DNA of 64,000 nucleotides from a virus, in the IMG/VR virus record IMGVR_UViG_3300005259_000074, positions 117,956 through 181,955 of that record; one strand, given 5' to 3'. How positions within the stretch are numbered: position 1 is the stretch's first letter; every line of letters begins with the position of its first letter. Made by a program: the position numbers and the translations under genes. The notes under the pieces were generated by a model. That model had not been told where the DNA came from. It worked only from the letters and a program-made list of their open reading frames with translations, and did not search any database. Positions 8,937-58,897 of the stretch are shown here, in pieces.

Positions 8937-8944
8937 TATAAATA
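8937..8944 (+). promoter_or_regulatory. T4-type late promoter TATAAATA
   Basis: Exact motif 30 nt upstream of ATG 8974. Confidence 0.75.
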
Positions 8945-50685: not shown

Positions 50686-51087
50686 TCAGCACGTAGTGAA
50701 TGGGATCACTAACGGCTCTTCTTTGAAGTTCTTTCGGAATGTTTTGACGCACTCCTTGAAGTTGTCTTCGAAATCTGAGATAGATTCTTCTCCGCCGTTC
50801 TCTACGTCTGCGACAGTCAGACCGAGTATGAATCGCTCGAAACATTCATCACTGTTGATCTCGACGTCTTTGATCTTCATCTTGTCGAACGCCTCTAGGA
50901 TGATCTCTTGGATCTCTCCTGGATCTTCTTCATCTATGTCCTCAGCTACTGCGGCGTACGTCTCTTTGAATTTATCGAGGTTTTTGTTGAGGAATTTCAC
51001 GAGGTCTCCAATTTCTTCAAAAGACTTTCCAACGATGAGAAAGCTCGAAGAACTGCTGTTAGACACGAATCCCGCTCTGATCTTCAT
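50686..51087 (-). CDS. GFVSNSS-motif protein
   Basis: MKIRAGFVSNSSSSSF. Confidence 0.75.
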   Translation of the reverse strand: MKIRAGFVSNSSSSSFLIVGKSFEEIGDLVKFLNKNLDKFKETYAAVAEDIDEEDPGEIQEIILEAFDKMKIKDVEINSDECFERFILGLTVADVENGGEESISDFEDNFKECVKTFRKNFKEEPLVIPFTTC

Positions 51088-51099
51088 CTTCTACCCCTT

Positions 51100-51399
51100 T
51101 CAGTATGTTTCTTGCAATATGTCGATCTTCATCTCTCTCAACATGAAACCCAAAAGAATGCTCACGTGTTGGTCAGTTGTGAGATGGTATGCTGAGAGTC
51201 CCTTGCACTTCCCATCGGAGATCTTCTTCTTACTCTCTTCATTGAGGTCCCAATCAGTCTCGTCTAGATCGTGTACTGAAGAATCGAACTCCGTTTCAGC
51301 TTTGCACATCCTCTTCATGAAACCCAGCTGATCTTTGTCAGCTAGTACTATGAAGCTAGATGAACTGCTGTTAGACACAAAACCATCTCTGCACTTCAC
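51100..51399 (-). CDS. GFVSNSS-motif protein
   Basis: MKCRDGFVSNSSSSSF. Confidence 0.75.
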   Translation of the reverse strand: MKCRDGFVSNSSSSSFIVLADKDQLGFMKRMCKAETEFDSSVHDLDETDWDLNEESKKKISDGKCKGLSAYHLTTDQHVSILLGFMLREMKIDILQETY

Positions 51400-51629
51400 T
51401 TTGACCTCTTACTGTTTTACCATGAATGAACCGAAGATTATGATCGACCATATCCCGACTATCGTGAAGAAGATGTAGTCCATCAATGACATTCACTTGC
51501 TGTCGAAATAGACAGCTACGCTGACGACGAGCAACACTGCTAGAAAAATGAGGATTATGACTGACACTTGACACCTCTTTGACAATTCACGTTTGAACCT
51601 AGACTAGTATACTTGCTACTGATTAACTG

Positions 51630-51935
51630 TCATAGGTTCGATAATTCATTATCTGTTTCATTTGCTATTTCAGCGAGGATTTCTGCGTGGCAATATTTTG
51701 GAGAGCACCAACATCCCAAGATCTTGTCTTTCAATTCACATCTTACTTTTTCTCTCAGTTCTATGTTCTCATTCAGCCATTTTTTGAACTTGAGGATCAC
51801 TTCATTCCGATTTCCATCTTTTCCAATCTCGAACGGATTTCCGAATGGACTTGGCCGTCCCACATAAACATCATATGTCGTCTTTTTGCAGTGCACGACA
51901 TACTTAGCGTATTTTCTCTTGGAAGATTTTGACAT
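51630..51935 (-). CDS. DUF4326 domain protein
   Basis: VYVGRPSPFGNPF..LGCWCSPKYCHAEIL. Confidence 0.85.
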   Translation of the reverse strand: MSKSSKRKYAKYVVHCKKTTYDVYVGRPSPFGNPFEIGKDGNRNEVILKFKKWLNENIELREKVRCELKDKILGCWCSPKYCHAEILAEIANETDNELSNL

Positions 51936-51942
51936 ATGAAGT

Positions 51943-52014
51943 AGCCCAAAATCGGTGCCGACCCGATGACCTCGTCCTTACCAAGGACGTGCTCTACCGC
52001 TGAGCTACTTGGGC
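51943..52014 (-). tRNA. tRNA-Thr(GGT)
   Basis: Cloverleaf; CGTCC-TTGGTAA-GGACG; no encoded CCA. Confidence 0.9.
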
Positions 52015-52020
52015 ATATGT

Positions 52021-52094
52021 TGGTGCGGTTAGGGAATTACGATATCCCGATTGCTGTCTGGCAGGCAGCCGTCTTTCCTCTAGACTATAACCGC
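52021..52094 (-). tRNA. tRNA-Gly(GCC)
   Basis: Loop CTGCCAG; ACCA end; atypical T arm. Confidence 0.85.
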
Positions 52095-52105
52095 AATGTA
52101 ATTAT

Positions 52106-52498
52106 TTACCCTCTCAGGCAGCTTCCACAAGCTCCAGAAGGTTTGCAGTCTTCTGGACACCTTGTCATATCTTCTTCGTCTCTGTACTTCTCGATCATTG
52201 TCTTAGCTGTGAAGATCAACGCGCGATTTCTAGCGCCTTTCATCGTCTTGGAGTATGGAGTGACCTCTAAAAATCCTTTCCACGTGACGAATCCCCTATA
52301 AGTCTTACCCACGCTGAACACGTGGACTCTGACATCTTTCGCTGGGTCACAGTGATATCTGTTATCTCGCTCTTTCACCCACTTAGCTTTCTTGAAGACC
52401 TGCAATCGTTCTTTCACGTCGAACAGAGTTGGATGATACTTGACATCGTCTTCTGAGAACGATATGTCTATCTTCTGCATGATCGTGAAATTGTCCAT
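52106..52498 (-). CDS. Hypothetical protein
   Basis: 130 aa with Cys-rich C-terminus. Confidence 0.55.
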   Translation of the reverse strand: MDNFTIMQKIDISFSEDDVKYHPTLFDVKERLQVFKKAKWVKERDNRYHCDPAKDVRVHVFSVGKTYRGFVTWKGFLEVTPYSKTMKGARNRALIFTAKTMIEKYRDEEDMTRCPEDCKPSGACGSCLRG

Positions 52499-52499
52499 G

Positions 52500-52694
52500 T
52501 CATCTTCTCACTTCTGGTATTGGAAGTCCTTCTTCTCTCAGCATTTCTATCCCATCATCGATAGCTTCTTCTAGAATCTCTAGAGCTTTCACTTGGTCTC
52601 TATCAATACCCGACAGATGAGGAAAATCTTTGCACACGGCGATGAACTCACCGTGTTCTTCGTCGTACACAATGATCTTGTTGTAGTGTGACAT
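52500..52694 (-). CDS. Orphan HicB-like antitoxin domain
   Basis: YDEEHGEFIAVCKDFPHLSG...ALEILEEAI..LREEGLPIPE. Confidence 0.75.
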   Translation of the reverse strand: MSHYNKIIVYDEEHGEFIAVCKDFPHLSGIDRDQVKALEILEEAIDDGIEMLREEGLPIPEVRR

Positions 52695-52769
52695 TGGTAT
52701 CCTCTGTAGGTAACGAGCCTACGACCTTCGCGATGTGAACGCGATGCTCTACAACTGAGCTAAGAGGAC
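52695..52769 (-). tRNA. tRNA-Val(CAC)
   Basis: TCGCG-TTCACAT-CGCGA; ACCA. Confidence 0.9.
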
Positions 52770-52780
52770 AAGAAACTTCA

Positions 52781-53122
52781 TCATTTCCACAATTTGTACC
52801 AAGAGAACGGCTTCGGCCACTGATCGTTAGGCCTTGGACAGAACACCAACGCAGTCTCAGCACCACCAAGTCCCGACTCGGTCATCAACACGTATTTGTC
52901 GAACTTCTTGGCGTTCTCAAATTCTCTGTCGTTGAGCTTACAGATGCACTTCCTGAAAGACTTGTCTAGCCATAGGTCGTAGTCTGCGTCTTTCCCAGAG
53001 AACTGCCTGTCGGCCGCTAACACTCCGTGCCCGACGGCCAGCATAGCGTGTCCTATGTCGATAGACTCTCTGACCAAGATGTACATCCTGGTGCTGCACT
53101 CAGTCGAAGTCGTCGTACTCAC
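52781..53122 (-). CDS. PTH2-family peptidyl-tRNA hydrolase-like protein
   Basis: MYILVRE..GHAMLAVGH..W...FRKCIC..ETALVFCP. Confidence 0.7.
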   Translation of the reverse strand: MSTTTSTECSTRMYILVRESIDIGHAMLAVGHGVLAADRQFSGKDADYDLWLDKSFRKCICKLNDREFENAKKFDKYVLMTESGLGGAETALVFCPRPNDQWPKPFSWYKLWK

Positions 53123-53285
53123 TGTACTTGTCCATTTCTACGTCATCTAGGAGTTCTTCGATGAGCTTCTTCTCAGACACTCGTTTTTCGTTGCGGTTCT
53201 TCATCGTCTTCTCTTGTGGGTTGACTTCCCACATTTTGCGTGTCAATTTGTAGGACGGCGTCTTCTGGTGCTTCTTAGAGCTCAT
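53100..53285 (-). CDS. Small hypothetical protein
   Basis: Coupled ORF; RKMWEVNP. Confidence 0.55.
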   Translation of the reverse strand: MSSKKHQKTPSYKLTRKMWEVNPQEKTMKNRNEKRVSEKKLIEELLDDVEMDKYSEYDDFD

Positions 53286-53443
53286 TTCATCTTTCTCTTC
53301 TTGATAACTGTACTGCGTCTAGCTCTCTTCCAGAATTCCTCAGTGAGTTCTGGAATGTCTGAATAGTCTATTTCAGAATCTTTCATCGCCCTGAGTCTGT
53401 CGATGTCATCTTGTTTTATCTTTCGTGTAGAGCGATCTACCAT
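53282..53443 (-). CDS. Truncated BrnA-like antitoxin (N-terminal part only); absent from ORF track
   Basis: Translated by hand: MVDRSTRKIKQDDIDRLRAMKDSEIDYSDIPELTEEFWKRARRSTVIKKRKMK. Confidence 0.7.
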   Translation of the reverse strand: MVDRSTRKIKQDDIDRLRAMKDSEIDYSDIPELTEEFWKRARRSTVIKKRKMK

Positions 53444-53598
53444 TCTGTGATAGTCTTTCTGAAATCTTCTTTCGGAAGATTCTTATACCTGCGAACTTTC
53501 TTCTTGCAGTAAGGACAGCGTTCTCCTTCGCTCACGAGTGCGTGATCGCAACATGGACACCAAGAATGCCTGTATCTGTGTAAAGGGCCGCGCTTCAT
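53437..53598 (-). CDS. Small zinc-ribbon protein
   Basis: WCPCC..CPYC; starts just after tRNA-Val(TAC). Confidence 0.5.
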   Translation of the reverse strand: MKRGPLHRYRHSWCPCCDHALVSEGERCPYCKKKVRRYKNLPKEDFRKTITEW

Positions 53599-53601
53599 AA
53601 T

Positions 53602-53676
53602 TGGTAGGAGTAGAGGAAATCGAATCCCCATAGCCGACGTGTAGAGTCGGTGCACTTACCGTTGTGCTATACTCCC
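53602..53676 (-). tRNA. tRNA-Val(TAC), C33 variant
   Basis: CCGAC-TCTACAC-GTCGG; ACCA. Confidence 0.85.
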
Positions 53677-53684
53677 ATAACAAA

Positions 53685-53785
53685 GTCTAGATCGAGCAAG
53701 TTTGGAGCGGTCCGGACATTTTACTGCAGCAATCTGTCCAAACATCCTAAAGCATCTAATTATATATTTCTTGCTCGACCTAGAC
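53685..53785 (-). ncRNA. Unassigned structured RNA, about 100 nt
   Basis: 16-bp closing stem GTCTAGGTCGAGCAAG/CTTGCTCGATCTAGAC. Confidence 0.5.
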
Positions 53786-53797
53786 CCATAAATCATC

Positions 53798-53932
53798 TGG
53801 TGCCTATAACCGGTCTCACGACCAGTAACCCTCCCGACTCCTCGACTGTTGGTCTAGCAGATTTACCATGGCACTCTGCTATACTCTGTCGCACCCTCGT
53901 TCGCGTGAAAGCAATCGATTGCTTTCCTAGGC
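53798..53932 (-). ncRNA. CCA-ended tRNA-like RNA, about 135 nt
   Basis: GCCTA/TAGGC-ACCA acceptor-like stem, T-arm-like hairpin, extra hairpins. Confidence 0.5.
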
Positions 53933-53957
53933 TGGCGCTTGACGTATCAAGCGTAAA

Positions 53958-54031
53958 TGGTCCCTCCAGCAGATCTCGAAACTGCGTCTCGGGCTTATGA
54001 AACCCGCGTTCTTCCTGTGAACTATAGAGGG
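53958..54031 (-). tRNA. tRNA-CAT (elongator Met or Ile2)
   Basis: CGGGT-TTCATAA-GCCCG; ACCA. Confidence 0.85.
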
Positions 54032-54041
54032 ATAATGCACG

Positions 54042-54115
54042 TGGTACTCCTTGAGGGTTCGAAACCTCGACCTCTTCCATGTCACGGAAGTGCTCTACAA
54101 CTGAGCTAAAGGAGC
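54042..54115 (-). tRNA. tRNA-Val(GAC)
   Basis: CTTCC-GTGACAT-GGAAG; ACCA. Confidence 0.9.
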
Positions 54116-54546
54116 ATGAGATCGTTCTTGACTGTCCTTCTGATGTTCTTCCTTATCAGCATGATCATCTTACCTAGTACGTTCTTCCCAGTGCCTTTGC
54201 ACTGGCTGCAATAACATACTCCCCAGCAGCGGTCGTGCCACGTGTTGCCTTCTTCGAGGTACTGATCGCCTGTGTCTAGCAACTTCTGCCTCAACACTGG
54301 GTCTCTGAACTTGTAGACCAGAAGTCGGTACATCACTCGGTACTTCTTGACTTCCCAGTCTGGAACCATTGAACAGACTTGACCTGCTCTCTTGGCTTGC
54401 CCTGGAGATGGGAGGTGAGCGATGTACTTCCTAGTCGAGGGACTAGATGCTTTCGCAGCTTGGTAGTAGTGCTCGATAGTCTTTCCGTTCGGGAACTTCG
54501 AAAAATTGGAGAGCCAACGAGTGTCGCCGCGAAATTCCTTGATCAT
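54106..54546 (-). CDS. NADAR family protein
   Basis: WLSNF..EHYYQAAK..AKRAG..DW..KF..LL.TG..L.EGN.WHD..WG..GKNVLGK; start moved to ATG 54546 (GAGG SD). Confidence 0.9.
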   Translation of the reverse strand: MIKEFRGDTRWLSNFSKFPNGKTIEHYYQAAKASSPSTRKYIAHLPSPGQAKRAGQVCSMVPDWEVKKYRVMYRLLVYKFRDPVLRQKLLDTGDQYLEEGNTWHDRCWGVCYCSQCKGTGKNVLGKMIMLIRKNIRRTVKNDLMLL

Positions 54547-54567
54547 CTCATCCTCTTCGTTTGAATT

Positions 54568-54653
54568 TTCCCGAGCTCCTTCGCGTCTATCCGGTCCTGG
54601 CAGGCGGCGACGTGTAGTGCCGCTCTTCGAGTCGAAGAAGGGACCCTCGAGAA
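54568..54653 (-). ncRNA. Unassigned multibranch RNA directly 3' of tRNA-Gly(CCC)
   Basis: TTCTCGAG/CTCGGGAA and GGTCC/GGACC stems plus two hairpins. Confidence 0.45.
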
Positions 54654-54727
54654 TGGAGCACTGTGGGAATTCTGACATCCCAACTGCAACTTGGGAAGTT
54701 GCGGTCTTTCCTTTAGACTAACAGTGC
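54654..54727 (-). tRNA. tRNA-Gly(CCC)
   Basis: GCAAC-TTCCCAA-GTTGC; TCCA. Confidence 0.9.
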
Positions 54728-54730
54728 AGA

Positions 54731-54804
54731 TGGTGCGAGTAGAGAATTCCGACATCTCGTCGCTAGTTTGGAAAACTAGGGTCCTTCCTCTGAACGATAC
54801 TCGC
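54731..54804 (-). tRNA. tRNA-Gly(TCC)
   Basis: CTAGT-TTTCCAA-ACTAG; ACCA. Confidence 0.9.
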
Positions 54805-54936
54805 ATTAACACTCGGACTACTGATCCCTCTCCGGTCTCGACTATACGGTGACCTCGAGTGGATCCTTCATCCGAATCTGGCTCGGATAGATGTGGAGAG
54901 CGTCTATACGGTTCTTCACGTCTATTCGAAAACTTC

Positions 54937-55012
54937 TGGCGCATCCAAGGAGTGCTGACCTCCTGACCTGCGGATCGACAATCCGCTGCACTAACCGTTG
55001 TGCTATGGATGC
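54937..55012 (-). tRNA. tRNA-Asp(GTC)
   Basis: GCGGA-TTGTCGA-TCCGC; GCCA. Confidence 0.9.
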
Positions 55013-55027
55013 ATGATCTAATATACT

Positions 55028-55101
55028 TGGTACTCCATAGCGGTGTTGATCCGCTTCCTCATGGCTGAGAACCATGTGGTCTACCGTTAACCTAATGGAG
55101 C
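55028..55101 (-). tRNA. tRNA-Glu(CTC)
   Basis: CATGG-TTCTCAG-CCATG; ACCA. Confidence 0.9.
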
Positions 55102-55109
55102 ATGAATTC

Positions 55110-55185
55110 TGGTGGACGCAGTGGTAATCGAAACCACATTCTCCGGGTGCAAACCGAAAGTAATAAACCGTTATACTATGCGCCC
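55110..55185 (-). tRNA. tRNA-Ala(TGC)
   Basis: Loop TTTGCAC; G3:U70; ACCA. Confidence 0.9.
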
Positions 55186-55341
55186 TGTTGAATCTCTAAA
55201 GATTCATAAAGATAAATCAAACTGCCGCTCCTGTCAATGAAGACCAATTGAATCTTCACGAGAGCGATCTTCTCTCATTGCAACGCACTGAGATCTATCC
55301 GGACTACAACCGGAGTTCGATAGGCGGACGTCTCCGCTTTC

Positions 55342-55417
55342 TGGTGGATACGGGAGGTGATCGAAACCTCTCTTGCAAGATGCGAACCTGCCGTGCAGCC
55401 ATCTACACTACCGACCC
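55342..55417 (-). tRNA. tRNA-Ala(CGC)
   Basis: Loop TTCGCAT; G3:U70; one bulged base in the acceptor stem. Confidence 0.85.
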
Positions 55418-55438
55418 ATAATAATGATGCATCTGACT

Positions 55439-55514
55439 TGGAGCCTACGGGCAAGGATTTGAACCGCCATCCATCGGGTACAGACCGATGATTCTACCTT
55501 TGAACTACGCAGGC
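55439..55514 (-). tRNA. tRNA-Thr(TGT), C33 variant
   Basis: ATCGG-TCTGTAC-CCGAT; 2-nt bulge in T stem; TCCA. Confidence 0.85.
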
Positions 55515-55525
55515 ATGAAAAACTG

Positions 55526-55607
55526 TAACAGAGGTGGAGAGTTGAACCCACAATGCGTTTCCGCCTGGGTTATGAGCCCAGTTAGCCTACCGAGGCTCGT
55601 CTCTGTA
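55526..55607 (-). tRNA. Initiator-like tRNA-Met(CAT) with long variable arm
   Basis: CTGGG-CTCATAA-CCCAG; 1:72 mismatch; GCG-GAAA-CGC extra arm. Confidence 0.7.
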
Positions 55608-55610
55608 ATC

Positions 55611-55699
55611 TGGTGGAGAGGGAACGATTCGAACGTCCGACACAGAGCCCTAATTCAAACATCAGTTGGCTCCTGCTCTACCGCTGAGCTACCTACTCC
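55611..55699 (-). ncRNA. tRNA-like RNA with elongated anticodon arm
   Basis: Canonical D arm, T arm and ACCA; anticodon stem closes 18 nt. Confidence 0.7.
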
Positions 55700-55716
55700 A
55701 TTATTTCTATGAAGAG

Positions 55717-55790
55717 CTCCTGTGGCATGGCTCGAACATGCGACTTGGAGATTAACAATCTCCCGTTCATACCGACTGAACTACACAGGA
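55717..55790 (-). tRNA. tRNA-Asn(GTT) inside a 21-bp inverted repeat
   Basis: GGAGA-TTGTTAA-TCTCC; no encoded CCA. Confidence 0.85.
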
Positions 55791-55806
55791 GCTCTTCATA
55801 GAAAGT

Positions 55807-55882
55807 TGGCTCACTTGGCTTGATTCGAACAAGCATGTTCAGAGTTAACAGCTCTGCCTACTGCCAATTGTAGTACAAGTGA
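55807..55882 (-). tRNA. tRNA-Asn(GTT)
   Basis: CAGAG-CTGTTAA-CTCTG; GCCA. Confidence 0.9.
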
Positions 55883-55894
55883 ATAAGAAATTAG

Positions 55895-56020
55895 ACTGGT
55901 CGCTCTTCCGCTGAGCTATCGTGTACATTCTACTTCGTTAGCTGGACTCAGTAGAAGTAGGTCCTCCGCGTGCACTCATCAGACCACTCACGAGTCGGAT
56001 TTGAACCGACGTCTTCCAGT
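55895..56020 (-). ncRNA. Circularly permuted tRNA-like RNA B
   Basis: ACTGG-var-T arm-TCGTG ... CACGA-TA-D arm-CCAGT. Confidence 0.7.
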
Positions 56021-56050
56021 TGATGGTGTCTCTAGGGCACCTTAATGAGT

Positions 56051-56123
56051 GCGAGTGTTCTACCATTAAACTACCAGCAAGGTATTTCACTCGCCAGCTT
56101 GGAATCGAACCAAGACCTCTCGC
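56051..56123 (-). ncRNA. Circularly permuted tRNA-like RNA A (YrlA-like topology)
   Basis: GCGAG-AGGT-CTTGG TTCGATT CCAAG-CTGGCGA-loop-TTGCTGG-TA-GTTT AATGGTA GAAC-A-CTCGC. Confidence 0.75.
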
Positions 56124-56350
56124 TTTGGTGGAACGCCGCTCTTTTCATAACCGCGCCCCATAAATGCCTCGACACATTAGCCGCTATGCTACTAGTGCCA
56201 ACAAATCCACTGAAAAGCATGGTTGTGTTGCAACACAGTTCTCTCCTAGAAGAGAACGCTCGTCAGTTTCATTGAGGTGTCGAAACGCGGTTGCAATCCG
56301 CTTTACGACCTATTGCACAAGTTGGGATTTGAACCCAACTCTTCGAGGGT

Positions 56351-56426
56351 TGGTGGTGTCGGCGGGCAATGATCCCACAACTTTCCGGGTAAGAGCCGGA
56401 TACTCTGCCAATTGAGTTACGACACC
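56351..56426 (-). tRNA. tRNA-Lys(CTT)
   Basis: TCCGG-CTCTTAC-CCGGA; ACCA. Confidence 0.9.
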
Positions 56427-56433
56427 TTGAATC

Positions 56434-56557
56434 TGGTAACGGACCTACATTTAGTAGTGCCTCATGGGCTATGTTGCCCAGCGTGCTGCCCCGCCAAATG
56501 TTTCTATCCGGGGCGAGGTGACGCAGTGATGGTTCTGCGCCTTTACACCATTCCGTA
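56434..56557 (-). ncRNA. Expanded initiator-tRNA-like RNA, 124 nt
   Basis: T-ACGGA/TCCGT-T-ACCA; two hairpins in the D-loop position; TGGG-CAACATAG-CCCA. Confidence 0.55.
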
Positions 56558-56565
56558 ATAAACTG

Positions 56566-56633
56566 TAGCGGAGCTGGATTCGATACCAGATCACCAGGTT
56601 ATGAGCCTAGTATGCTACTTACACCACCCCGCA
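56566..56633 (-). tRNA. Initiator-like tRNA-Met(CAT)
   Basis: T-GCGGGG/CTCCGC-T 1:72 mismatch; CTAGG-CTCATAA-CCTGG. Confidence 0.75.
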
Positions 56634-56654
56634 TGTTGGTGTCTCTAGGACACC

Positions 56655-56980
56655 ATAAAGAGTCATCAGTTGACGCTCTCCGAGCGATCATCAGAGGTGG
56701 AGAAGTTTCTTAGACAGAGATGAATCTTGACGGGACCATTTGAGTTGGGTAAAAACCCACGTGAGGTCCTTCGTGGCACATGTCTGTCAGACGCCGGCTG
56801 CTCAGCAACCGACATCGCTCCTCCACCTCGGATGACCACTGGAAAGCGATCACCTGAGAATAATCCTCATTTTCAAAGAACGGTGCATGAGCTTTAGTAG
56901 CACGCATATCTCTCAGTCTGTTCAGCTAGCGACTTGCGCCTCTAGCATCTGAAAGCTCTCGCGACTCATGCTGAGTCCAT
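56655..56980 (-). ncRNA. Unassigned large structured RNA
   Basis: About 33-bp bulged helix 56818-56851/56672-56705 closing a three-way junction. Confidence 0.55.
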
Positions 56981-56987
56981 TTTGTCT

Positions 56988-57062
56988 TGGTGCGCTCGGA
57001 GAATTTTGAAATCTCGACTCTCTGGTTAAAAGCCAGATACTCTGCCTCTGAGTTACGAGCGC
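56988..57062 (-). tRNA. tRNA-Lys(TTT)
   Basis: TCTGG-CTTTTAA-CCAGA; ACCA. Confidence 0.9.
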
Positions 57063-57100
57063 ATATTTCTAATCAGCACCTGAGACTTTCACATCTCATT

Positions 57101-57177
57101 TGGTGGGAGAACCGGGTTTCGATTCCGGATATCCTGCTCTTCAGGCAGGAGCTCTTGACCGTTTGAGCTATTCTCCC
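57101..57177 (-). tRNA. tRNA-Phe(GAA)
   Basis: CCTGC-CTGAAGA-GCAGG; ACCA. Confidence 0.9.
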
Positions 57178-57186
57178 ATAAACTTC

Positions 57187-57261
57187 TGGTATCCCGTGTC
57201 GGTATCGATCCGACTTCCCCTGGATGAAGGCCAGGCATCCTAGCCAGTAGACGAACGGGAC
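57187..57261 (-). tRNA. tRNA-Glu(TTC), C33 variant
   Basis: CCTGG-CCTTCAT-CCAGG; ACCA. Confidence 0.85.
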
Positions 57262-57424
57262 AAATGTGAATGAGATGTCTCGCGACATACCAGTTGCAAG
57301 CAACTGTCTCACTCATATTCAATGATCACCGGCTTCCGATCTCTCGTCCGCCTAATCCAATTATACACCACGTGGTGAAAATTGTAATAGGACTTTCGAA
57401 AAATCTTCGACCTTTCTTTCGAAC

Positions 57425-57499
57425 TGGAGCTGGTTCCCGGTGACGATCCGAGGTCTGTGGGATACGAATCCACTGCTCTACCATTTGAGCTAAACCAGC
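57425..57499 (-). tRNA. tRNA-Thr(CGT)
   Basis: Loop TTCGTAT; TCCA; first tRNA of the operon. Confidence 0.9.
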
Positions 57500-57509
57500 A
57501 TCATCTTCT

Positions 57510-57540
57510 AAAACTAAGAAGCCCTGCTTTTCTGCAGGGC
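57510..57540 (-). terminator. Intrinsic terminator (attenuator) ahead of the tRNA array
   Basis: GCCCTGC-AGAAAA-GCAGGGC-TTCTTAGTTTT. Confidence 0.7.
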
Positions 57541-57575
57541 CCGTTCTAATCTTCATCTTTGATTTCGAACAGACC

Positions 57576-57647
57576 CTATGACGTGACTCCTTCAGCCGCA
57601 TCAAACATTGCGGTTTCATTTTTCTTATCTGTCATCACGTTCATCAT
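57576..57647 (-). CDS. Putative leader peptide MMNVMTDKKNETAMFDAAEGVTS
   Basis: GAGGA SD 9 nt upstream; stop codon overlaps the antiterminator strand; an alternative ATG at 57656 adds MIR. Confidence 0.65.
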   Translation of the reverse strand: MMNVMTDKKNETAMFDAAEGVTS

Positions 57648-57670
57648 ACGAATCATTCCTCTTCACAGTC

Positions 57671-57678
57671 TATTTATA
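57671..57678 (-). promoter_or_regulatory. Promoter of the tRNA operon: TATAAATA (also TTCAAA-N17-TATAAA)
   Basis: Exact T4-late motif on the minus strand just upstream of the leader SD. Confidence 0.65.
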
Positions 57679-57831
57679 CTGTGTGCTATGAAGTTTTTGA
57701 ACTGTCTGCCGAGAAAATGTGAAAATTCTTTTACCCCTATATAAGGTATAAATGAAGAAATGAAGTTATCGCAGGATGTTGTTCATTACCAACGAGTTAT
57801 AAGAAAAATGAAAGAAAATGATGAATTCTGC

Positions 57832-57864
57832 TGTACATCCTCCCTTATGGCGTTATATTAGACT
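57832..57864 (+). promoter_or_regulatory. Early-type promoter TGTACA-N16-TATATT
   Basis: Shares a 21-mer with 42801-42821; A-rich upstream element. Confidence 0.7.
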
Positions 57865-57908
57865 ACATAGGGAAACCAACAACGGCAACCCACAAATGGA
57901 GAACAGCG

Positions 57909-58067
57909 ATGAAAAAGAATCCGATTGCAAAGAAGCCTGTTAAACAGAAGACACCTTCTCTTTCAAAGTTACAGAAGATCAATGACAAGCGCATACACGA
58001 TGCGTGCGAGATGGATCCCGCTCTATGTGATGATGCATTCTGGGATAATCTCTGCAAGACATTATAA
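57909..58067 (+). CDS. Small hypothetical early protein; absent from ORF track
   Basis: MKKNPIAKKPVKQK..DDAFWDNLCKTL; GGAG SD. Confidence 0.55.
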   Translation: MKKNPIAKKPVKQKTPSLSKLQKINDKRIHDACEMDPALCDDAFWDNLCKTL

Positions 58068-58083
58068 TAAGTGAGGAAACTCC

Positions 58084-58506
58084 ATGAAGACGACGGTCGT
58101 CAAATACGGCCTCCAAGACATAGAGACCGGCAAGATAGTGGGAGTCACTGAACGTACCGCGTCGACTCCCGAGGAGGGGAACAGCATCGAGTACCAGCTT
58201 GACACTCACGGAGGAGAGCGAGAGTGGCTAGTCGACTCAGCGGAGCACGCTGAGTGGGTGCGTCTCAACGACACCGCGTATTACAATTCAGGTTACGACA
58301 CTCCTCAGCACATGGGATTGCGCCCCGAGCAGTTGAGAGTCATCAGAGTCAAGAAGGTTGTCGAGGTCACACCCGTCGAGGTGAAGATACCGACGAAGCT
58401 CGAACTCTACCGTAAGGTGTACGAAGAGGGCGTGACGATAAGGCCGGGCGGCTTCCTCATAGCGCCGACGGGCTGGGTCACCTCGCTATGTTGGAAGCTA
58501 ACATAG
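58084..58506 (+). CDS. Hypothetical protein (3' end possibly frameshifted)
   Basis: GAGG SD; -1 frame open to 58574. Confidence 0.6.
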   Translation: MKTTVVKYGLQDIETGKIVGVTERTASTPEEGNSIEYQLDTHGGEREWLVDSAEHAEWVRLNDTAYYNSGYDTPQHMGLRPEQLRVIRVKKVVEVTPVEVKIPTKLELYRKVYEEGVTIRPGGFLIAPTGWVTSLCWKLT

Positions 58507-58576
58507 ACGATTACGAGCCGTTGTACTGGGACTATGTGCAGTACTATAGAGACGTCGAAAAGAAGAGGATCTGAAC

Positions 58577-58897
58577 ATGCTGAAGAAACTCAGTAGAAAG
58601 AAGATTACATCTGGTTCGATCAGCGAAGTTGCAGATATCTTGACTGAATTCGCTGGAAAATATCCGAAATTCCAGAAAGAGTTAGACGATTTCATCTGGT
58701 CAAGGGGATCTTACCAGACACCTGATGTCGCAGATGACGATCCTGCTCTGATAGATGAGACCAAGAAGACCAACAGAGAAACTATAGTCAGGCGCATTTC
58801 AGAACTGACGTCGGCAGAAGACAGCGAGAGATTCCGCACTGCGCTAGCGAAATACATCGCGAATAAGAAATCACACGAAGGACTAGAGGAAAGTTGA
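58577..58897 (+). CDS. Hypothetical protein, paralog of the next gene
   Basis: KYPxxxKxLxxF..KKxN.E..TS.....FR..L shared. Confidence 0.65.
   Translation: MLKKLSRKKITSGSISEVADILTEFAGKYPKFQKELDDFIWSRGSYQTPDVADDDPALIDETKKTNRETIVRRISELTSAEDSERFRTALAKYIANKKSHEGLEES

Follow-up and report, generated by a model that had tools for sequence, protein, structure and literature searches.

The DNA examined here raises the question of how a phage might control transcription of its own tRNA genes. Discussion of phage tRNAs usually treats them as patches for codon usage or as decoys against defences that cleave tRNAs, and the control of their expression is, to our knowledge, largely unknown. The window analysed is a 64,000-nucleotide (nt) stretch, positions 117,956 to 181,955 of the virus record IMGVR_UViG_3300005259_000074. 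At 57510-57701 on its minus strand lies a module comprising a short open reading frame (ORF), here called leader 1, and a terminator, directly followed by an array of tRNA genes (array 1). Coordinates are those of the window unless preceded by G000, which denotes the whole record of 262,470 bp; this record encodes a T4-type capsid protein and baseplate proteins. Sequence analysis and modelled RNA folding make it probable that leader 1 is a functional trp-style leader-peptide attenuator, which would tie transcription of the tRNA array to the speed at which the matching codons are decoded. The reading is supported because a second leader-array pair exists in the same genome, the codon match is frame-specific, the predicted folding depends on ribosome position, and corresponding evidence comes from a relative of ~90% identity and from a second genome.

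An earlier note on this DNA had placed a Shine-Dalgarno (SD) sequence, a 23-codon ORF, a 12-bp antiterminator, a terminator and, 10 nt further on, a tRNA gene at this locus. All of them lie as claimed, base for base, and the elements are as follows.

57701-57696, minus strand: TTCAAA, a possible -35 hexamer (function presumed), 17 nt upstream of the TATAAA box
57678-57671, minus strand: TATAAATA box, a probable T4-type late promoter or -10 element, read from the sequence
57663-57656, minus strand: SD sequence AAGAGGAA, with its GAGGA core at 57661-57657, 9 nt ahead of the ATG
57658-57634, minus strand: segment 1, the start region, whose predicted partner in untranslated RNA is the stop region (segment 2), from the minimum free energy (MFE) fold of the 191-nt leader
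57647-57576, minus strand: leader ORF 1, MMNVMTDKKNETAMFDAAEGVTS, 23 codons and a stop (ATG at 57647, TAG at 57578-57576)
57578-57567, minus strand: putative antiterminator 5' arm TAGGGTCTGTTC, starting at the stop codon and within the footprint of a terminating ribosome
57546-57535, minus strand: putative antiterminator 3' arm GAACGGGCCCTG, forming 12 bp with TAGGGTCTGTTC and overlapping the terminator 5' arm
57542-57510, minus strand: intrinsic terminator, a hairpin at 57542-57519 (9 pairs, 6 of them GC) and a T-rich tail ending at 57510
57499-57425, minus strand: tRNA-Thr(CGT), predicted by ARAGORN, the first gene past the putative attenuator, starting 10 nt after the terminator tail
57387-57360, minus strand: internal sigma-70-like promoter TTACAA-17-TATAAT, directly after the first tRNA and near-identical to the promoter ahead of the second leader described below
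57261-51943, minus strand: remainder of array 1, with tRNAs for Glu, Phe, Lys (two), Asn (two), an Ile-like tRNA, three with a CAT anticodon, Thr (two), Ala (two), Asp, Val (three) and Gly (two), and small genes between them

The hexamers AGAGGA and GAGGAA rank among the commonest 5' of the genes of this phage, and the hairpin at 57542-57519 is the best-scoring match of a terminator scan covering 51500-58600. A longer in-frame start is available to leader ORF 1 at ATG 57656; its use is unlikely because it touches the SD sequence. The TTCAAA hexamer is missing from the output of a consensus promoter scan. Since the genes rightward of leader 1, from 58084 onward, run on the opposite strand, the region is a divergent control region rather than the end of an upstream operon.

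The codons of leader 1 were compared with the tRNAs that follow. ARAGORN predicts 20 tRNAs in array 1 (51943-57499, minus strand); two more, tRNA-Gly(TCC) at 54732-54805 and a third CAT tRNA at 56565-56634, come from Rfam and relaxed ARAGORN. Leader 1 covers all ten amino acids Met, Asn, Val, Thr, Asp, Lys, Glu, Ala, Phe and Gly, with the last sense codon (Ser) as the sole outsider, and it matches isoacceptors separately (ACA/ACC/ACG, AAA/AAG, GCA/GCG and GTG/GTC), so that the coverage and isoacceptor sampling described previously were confirmed codon by codon. Its GGA codon has a cognate in tRNA-Gly(TCC), the tRNA overlooked by default ARAGORN. The tRNA-Ile(GAT) predicted by ARAGORN is unsampled, there being no Ile codon in the favoured frame of leader 1. 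This 89-nt 'tRNA-Ile(GAT)' (55611-55699, minus strand) and an 80-nt CAT tRNA (55526-55607, minus strand) are both abnormally long.

A second leader (leader 2) and a second array (array 2) span G000 253090-255290, with their own promoter, ORF, antiterminator and terminator. A sigma-70-like promoter, TTACAA-17-TATAAT, is followed by a GATAAATA box, the counterpart of TATAAATA, then by the AAGAGGAA SD sequence, the same 9-nt spacing, a GTG start and an ORF, VNFQRIQQHPPCPRRNPRRSCAV, of the same length as leader 1. This is followed by a long terminator hairpin with TTTTGTTTT, ~47 nt ahead of the first tRNA of array 2. The two leaders have in common the SD sequence, its spacing, the length of 24 codons (23 and the stop) and the boxes ATAAATAGA and TAGAAGAT, and the SD-start motif occurs at two places in the genome only, leaders 1 and 2. 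Given the shared SD sequence, spacing and length, and the restriction of the SD-start motif to these two sites, the leaders are, judged by sequence, paralogous modules with diverged codons. When the 13 gaps upstream of tRNAs in both arrays were scanned, a matching ORF with an adjacent terminator was found at the two array heads only. The octamer TAGAAGAT is located just 5' of the first tRNA of both arrays (57510-57503 and G000 255037-255030, both minus strand); it occurs 17 times in the genome, and its position here may reflect chance or a processing signal.

Array 2 (G000 253090-255021, minus strand, outside the window) encodes tRNAs for Gln(UUG, CUG), Pro(UGG, CGG), His(GUG, two copies), Cys(GCA) and Arg(ACG), with Arg(CCG) and Arg(CCU) from Rfam alignments. 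Default ARAGORN overlooks three of its tRNAs, namely Arg-CCG, Arg-CCU and an odd one without a normal D arm. The two arrays are divided by codon class, array 1 serving codons with A or G in first position, plus Phe, and array 2 serving CNN codons (not Leu), plus Cys and the AGR Arg codons. No Leu, Ser or Trp tRNAs were found in the two arrays, and Tyr is doubtful.

The statistics that follow use the 22 codons after the start codon of each 23-codon leader, with codon frequencies taken from 278 crude long ORFs of the genome. The amino-acid set of the array has a genome codon frequency of 0.579 for array 1 versus 0.152 for array 2. Leader 1 has 21/22 codons in its own set (binomial P=1.0e-4) and leader 2 has 15/22 (P=3.2e-8); in the set of the other array, leader 1 has 0/22 and leader 2 has 5/22. 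Among 1841 six-frame ORFs of 18-35 codons, leader 1 ranks first and leader 2 second, and this comparison with genome codon usage, proposed by the earlier note as a check, came out in its favour. Under conservative wobble rules, 20/22 codons of leader 1 (P=7.6e-4) and 13/22 of leader 2 (P=5e-6) are readable by the tRNAs of the array. Likewise, leader 1 samples 16/19 of the tRNA species of its own array (P=5e-3) and leader 2 samples 10/10 (P=1.5e-5), or 9/9 when an ambiguous tRNA of array 2 is left out. The Arg codons of leader 2, CGA, AGG, AGA and CGG, correspond to tRNAs ACG, CCU, UCU (with doubt) and CCG. Cross pairing at the codon level, each leader against the other array, gives no codons for leader 1 and four for leader 2, and the other two sense frames hold 7/22 and 10/22 set codons in leader 1 and 3/22 and 5/22 in leader 2. 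The codon match is specific, in both leaders, to the SD-linked frame and to the leader's own array.

RNA folding was used to examine how the position of a ribosome might decide between the alternative structures. The whole-leader folds have z values of -4.2 for leader 1 (-4.19 over 191 nt) and -4.1 for leader 2 against shuffled sequences, with 0/200 shuffles as good. For RNA without a ribosome, the MFE structure predicted for either leader joins the start region to the stop region (1:2 pairing) and contains the terminator. A ribosome was then modelled by leaving free only the RNA from 13 nt past the first base of the A-site codon, folded up to the terminator 3' arm. The leader 1 antiterminator has a predicted energy of -20.4 kcal/mol for an A site at or before codon 18, which weakens to -11.4 (codon 20) and -4.8 (codon 21) and reaches 0 for codon 22 and the stop; its terminator hairpin alone has -16.1 kcal/mol. 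The leader 2 antiterminator (8+6 bp, with its 5' arm in the last six codons) has -22.4 kcal/mol up to codon 14, -14 with codon 15 in the A site and -7.4 for codon 17 and beyond, and the terminator alone -19.3 kcal/mol. Dinucleotide shuffles of the upstream part reached the antiterminator energy in 0/1000 cases for leader 1 (z -5.1) and in 5/1000 for leader 2. The folding of both conformers, another of the checks suggested beforehand, gave the alternative folds that had been envisaged. In both leaders, the antiterminator is predicted to be free during an early stall and covered once the ribosome comes to the stop codon or close to it. A control with natural terminators placed leader 1 first; with only 16 hairpins, and a 45-nt upstream window that truncates the leader 2 antiterminator, it is a weak control.

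From this anatomy the following mechanism can be proposed. Ribosomes would translate the leader before RNA polymerase has left it. With quick decoding, the ribosome would reach the last codons or the stop and mask the antiterminator arm, the terminator would form, and transcription would end before the first tRNA. Scarcity of a cognate charged tRNA, whether because the host pool is poor or because of host shut-off or tRNA cleavage, would halt the ribosome at an early codon, in a zone that extends over codons 1-18 of leader 1 and codons 1-14 of leader 2. In that case the antiterminator (-20 and -22 kcal/mol) would form ahead of the terminator, letting polymerase continue into the array. Newly made phage tRNAs would speed decoding and relieve the stall, closing a negative feedback loop. 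Read-through in this scheme needs the antiterminator to form first, by an assumed kinetic trapping, because the terminator is the MFE structure in most stalled states; the trp attenuator likewise depends on its antiterminator forming first.

Conservation was sought in related sequences. A look through sequencing runs for the locus brought up no RNA run. The contigs of sequencing run X1 contain a relative ~85-93% identical along array 1, whose leader has seven listed substitutions in five codons: AAC to AAT (Asn to Asn), ATG to ACG (Met to Thr), GAT to AAT (Asp to Asn), GCT to GAG (Ala to Glu) and GAA to GTC (Glu to Val). All five codon changes remain in the array 1 amino-acid set, and every new codon has a cognate array tRNA. 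The terminator and the antiterminator 3' arm are identical to those of the window. The comparison suggests that set membership is conserved and the peptide is not. Both X1 contigs end at window positions 57560-57581, with a 22-nt overlap, at the stop codon and antiterminator 5' arm, where strain variation or a repeat could account for the break.

Beyond this relative, the closest cultured phages are T4-like cyanophages, which with ~36% capsid identity are too distant for a conservation test. The leader region has no DNA match in the phages collection, where the whole array matches single tRNAs only. Protein searches of viral_contigs returned nothing for the divergent neighbour gene or for the baseplate wedge; a search with the capsid returned two relatives, a 12-kb contig without tRNAs (L122) and a 164-kb genome (G001). 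A scan of viral_contigs for the SD-start motif gave ~150 chance matches, none with a co-oriented downstream tRNA, and a scan of the same collection for the shared promoter motif gave no matches. Together with a protein scan of metagenome_contigs described below, these searches yielded no close relative.

A tRNA match led to GenBank LR756501.1, an uncultured phage of 735,411 bp with 66 tRNA matches in several arrays. These were divided into 20 tRNA blocks, a block break being defined here as a gap of at least 250 nt. A hairpin resembling a terminator lies no more than 450 nt upstream of four of the 20 blocks, and directly before each of these hairpins is a matching ORF:

His/Lys/Phe/Ser/Trp array: leader MLQTSKHSKHFSSSSKWFTTFGVETDLLCVS, 16/30, P=5.8e-4, with codons 4-17 all in the set
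Leu array (five tRNAs): leader MNNILHINLLNSLCLLGIKLIG, P=6e-4, with all six Leu codons used
Gln/Met array: leader MNFRIINMIQEQMQQIQNLIGGTISY, P=1.1e-4
Arg/Thr/Val/Ala/Gly/Pro whole array: leader MLFNSNISVKFTPAPAVAFRRGTGTGTGTCVPAGCGFEGMNG, 24/41, P=1.5e-4, versus P=0.34 for its first block (Arg) alone

The modules lie at L133 18285-18495 and, on the reverse strand, at L134 1010-1152, 13344-13474 and 34287-34413. In the 16 terminator-free blocks the best P ranges from 5.9e-3 to 1. These leaders are of the same design as leaders 1 and 2 and unrelated to them in sequence. In each, an antiterminator is predicted to overlap the terminator 5' arm and to be lost as a ribosome approaches the stop. Only 3/500 shuffles match the antiterminator of the Leu leader; the values for the His/Lys/Phe/Ser/Trp and Gln/Met leaders (52/500 and 73/500) were obtained at a ribosome position that already masks the antiterminator and are uninformative. 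Two of the four modules share a near-identical terminator (ACCCAATCAG.AATGATTGGGT).

Several observations weigh against the attenuator reading. With the hairpin fully transcribed, the terminator is the MFE structure for leader 1 at codons 8-23 and for leader 2 in 22/24 states, and the T-tail of leader 1 is interrupted (TTCTTAGTTTT). The leaders use their codons once or twice each, without runs like those of hisL and pheL, and their response to a mild shortage is uncertain. Leader 2 has 7/22 codons outside the array 2 set, and four of its matching codons (CCT, CGG, AGG and TGC) sit where a stall would mask the antiterminator. The odd tRNA of array 2 (G000 254546-254627) is ambiguous, being Arg(UCU) by Rfam versus Tyr(GUA) by relaxed ARAGORN. 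As regards the relative in X1, the chance of four replacements staying in the set is ~0.1, the alignment omits the last ~30 nt of both contigs (57551-57590), where codons 19-23 and the 5' arm of the antiterminator lie, and the relative departs from the window sequence upstream of the TATAAA box. The distant relative G001 (56% capsid identity, five tRNAs) has no matching leader, its best ORF reaching P=0.054. The look at relatives that the earlier note had called for gave set-preserving changes in X1 and no matching leader in G001.

Lastly, the internal promoter at 57387-57360 could supply at least 19 array 1 tRNAs and so bypass leader 1. The TTACAA-17-TATAAT motif occurs, on the minus strand, at two places in the genome only, after the first tRNA of array 1 and before leader 2, and the stretch behind the internal promoter (57355-57262) was found to hold no ORF-terminator module. 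With so strong a promoter behind the first tRNA, leader 1 is not the only way into array 1; the internal promoter probably serves as an unregulated entry, and leader 1 adds to it. Array 2 sits entirely behind its own leader. The trp/his/thr-type attenuator proposed by the earlier note is supported by the codon match, the second pair, the folds, X1 and LR756501.1, and falls short in that array 1 is not governed by leader 1 alone.

The promoter box of leader 1 that had been pointed out is indeed present at 57678-57671, and its nature seems to be different from a generic -10. The TATAAATA sequence has 11 sites in the genome, of which seven are within 120 nt (11-47 nt) upstream of a same-strand crude gene start, several of them structural. 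It matches the T4 late-promoter consensus. On both counts leader 1 is probably a late transcript, and a late promoter box of the T4 type is a likelier identity for this element than a generic -10. Further TATAAATA boxes at window positions 8937, 12097, 31755, 36758 and 48540 (plus strand) precede structural and other genes, with 36-47 nt between box and gene start, which fits T4-type late promoters.

The alternative that survives best, although unlikely, is a generic translation-coupled attenuator whose leader gauges ribosome activity as a whole, or translation stress, with codon identity secondary. The single or double use of each codon would suit such a device. The upstream ORF (uORF) of whiB7 (wblC) in mycobacteria is a precedent: as described in PMC10274678, it reacts to many tRNA, synthetase and amino-acid defects, is followed by a terminator, and is activated by translational stalling and by tRNA or synthetase knock-down, with the uORF coding sequence setting what is sensed. 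The modules found here resemble it in having a short ORF and then a terminator, with activation by stalling predicted. In contrast, whiB7 is cellular, encodes a transcription factor for antibiotic and alanine stress, has an Ala-enriched uORF and has no link to tRNA genes. A general stress sensor also leaves unexplained that the disjoint codon sets of the two leaders follow their own arrays (21/22 versus 0/22, and 15/22 versus 5/22), that all ten array 2 species are sampled, that the leaders of LR756501.1 track four arrays and that the X1 replacements stay in the set.

Far less probable is that these are chance ORFs beside ordinary or leaky terminators, or beside processing hairpins that merely damp tRNA transcription. 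In favour of this, the ORFs are short, they were singled out post hoc, and thermodynamically the terminator is the MFE structure of most states. However, two leaders with P values of 1e-4 and 3e-8, ranked first and second of 1841 and matched in one frame only, are hard to reconcile with chance. The same is true of the SD sequence at identical spacing in both, of antiterminator arms placed exactly in the stop-codon footprint (shuffles 0/1000 and 5/1000) and of the recurrence of the design in LR756501.1. Direct tRNA sensing by codon-anticodon pairing without translation, in the manner of a T-box, or a job of its own for the short transcript or peptide, is the least credible explanation, for although terminated attenuator RNAs and leader peptides can act in trans elsewhere (as reported for rnTrpL and peTrpL), neither leader matches a T-box or other Rfam family at E<=0.1, the SD sequence, start codon, open frame and stop at the antiterminator all indicate translation, and X1 keeps set membership rather than the peptide sequence.

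If leaders 1 and 2 are attenuators controlled by decoding, how do they relate to systems already described? The leaders thrL, ilvL (of ilvGMEDA), trpL, hisL, leuL and pheL are leader-peptide attenuators of enterobacterial amino-acid operons, those of thr and ilv being multivalent. Like the thrL/ilvL type, the modules found here have a promoter, an SD sequence and a short ORF in which regulatory codons are enriched, together with an antiterminator and a terminator that are predicted to exclude each other. Leaders of that type also pair start with stop when untranslated, and the predicted MFE folds of leaders 1 and 2 show such a pairing. As in that type, a stalled ribosome would favour read-through, and one leader would sense several amino acids. 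They differ in that tRNA genes, not biosynthesis or synthetase genes, lie downstream, so that the product would feed back on the sensed step. They also differ in being phage-borne and in covering at least ten amino acids and separate isoacceptor codons, each used once or twice and not in runs. T-box riboswitches are transcription attenuators that answer to tRNA status. Needing no translation, they use a specifier codon and the T-box motif to bind one uncharged tRNA directly, and the genes under their control are synthetase and amino-acid genes. Neither the T-box model nor any Rfam leader family gave a match at E<=0.1 in window 51000-58500 or in the leader 2 region. The leaders would thus appear to work like leader-peptide attenuators and to belong to no described leader family.

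The logic is known for amino-acid genes, and its application to tRNA genes appears to be new by our literature search. The earlier note knew of no described example, and no published instance of tRNA genes under leader-peptide attenuation came up in full-text literature searches. The main text of a huge-phage paper (PMC7162821) has, by term search, no mention of it. An attenuator-like leader considered for the E. coli tRNA-Phe genes was dropped, as the ~105 nt separating pheV from its neighbour contain a promoter and no Phe-rich ORF; the gap upstream of pheU is ~106 nt.

As for the natural trigger, host codon mismatch, host shut-off or a tRNA-cleaving defence could each serve, counter-defence being one possibility among these. 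Plain supply-and-demand feedback would fit the anatomy equally well as the tRNA-damage sensor for counter-defence suggested at the outset. More tentatively, and as a real possibility rather than the expected outcome, large phages may sort their tRNA arrays by codon class and gate each with a codon-mirror leader, which would be on when any replaceable tRNA is short (including through anticodon nuclease cuts) and off once decoding is restored. Such leaders would form a widespread, unpublished class of tRNA-sensing attenuators. Were the attenuator reading true, the leader peptide would sense tRNA supply by direct feedback, and attenuation would extend from amino-acid to tRNA supply. Moreover, sequence alone would then predict which tRNAs a phage expects its host to lack, and the module would offer synthetic biology a compact, multiplexed sensor of tRNA shortage. 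This genome is an especially clean case because the disjoint codon sets of two leaders track two disjoint arrays.

Two further features of the locus may be recorded. Upstream of the leader 1 promoter box, at 57848-57797 (minus strand), a strong SD sequence, AAGGGAGG, and ATG 57838 open a 13-codon mini-ORF, MYSRIHHFLSFFL, which is rich in Ser, Leu, Tyr, Phe and His; no terminator was seen 3' of it. Inside array 1, at 54678-54106 (minus strand), is a gene for a 190-residue DUF1768/YbiA (NADAR-like) protein that matches phrog_1017. A scan of metagenome_contigs with this protein gave relatives of 31-39% identity only, without tRNA arrays, and its homologues occur in 448 phage records.

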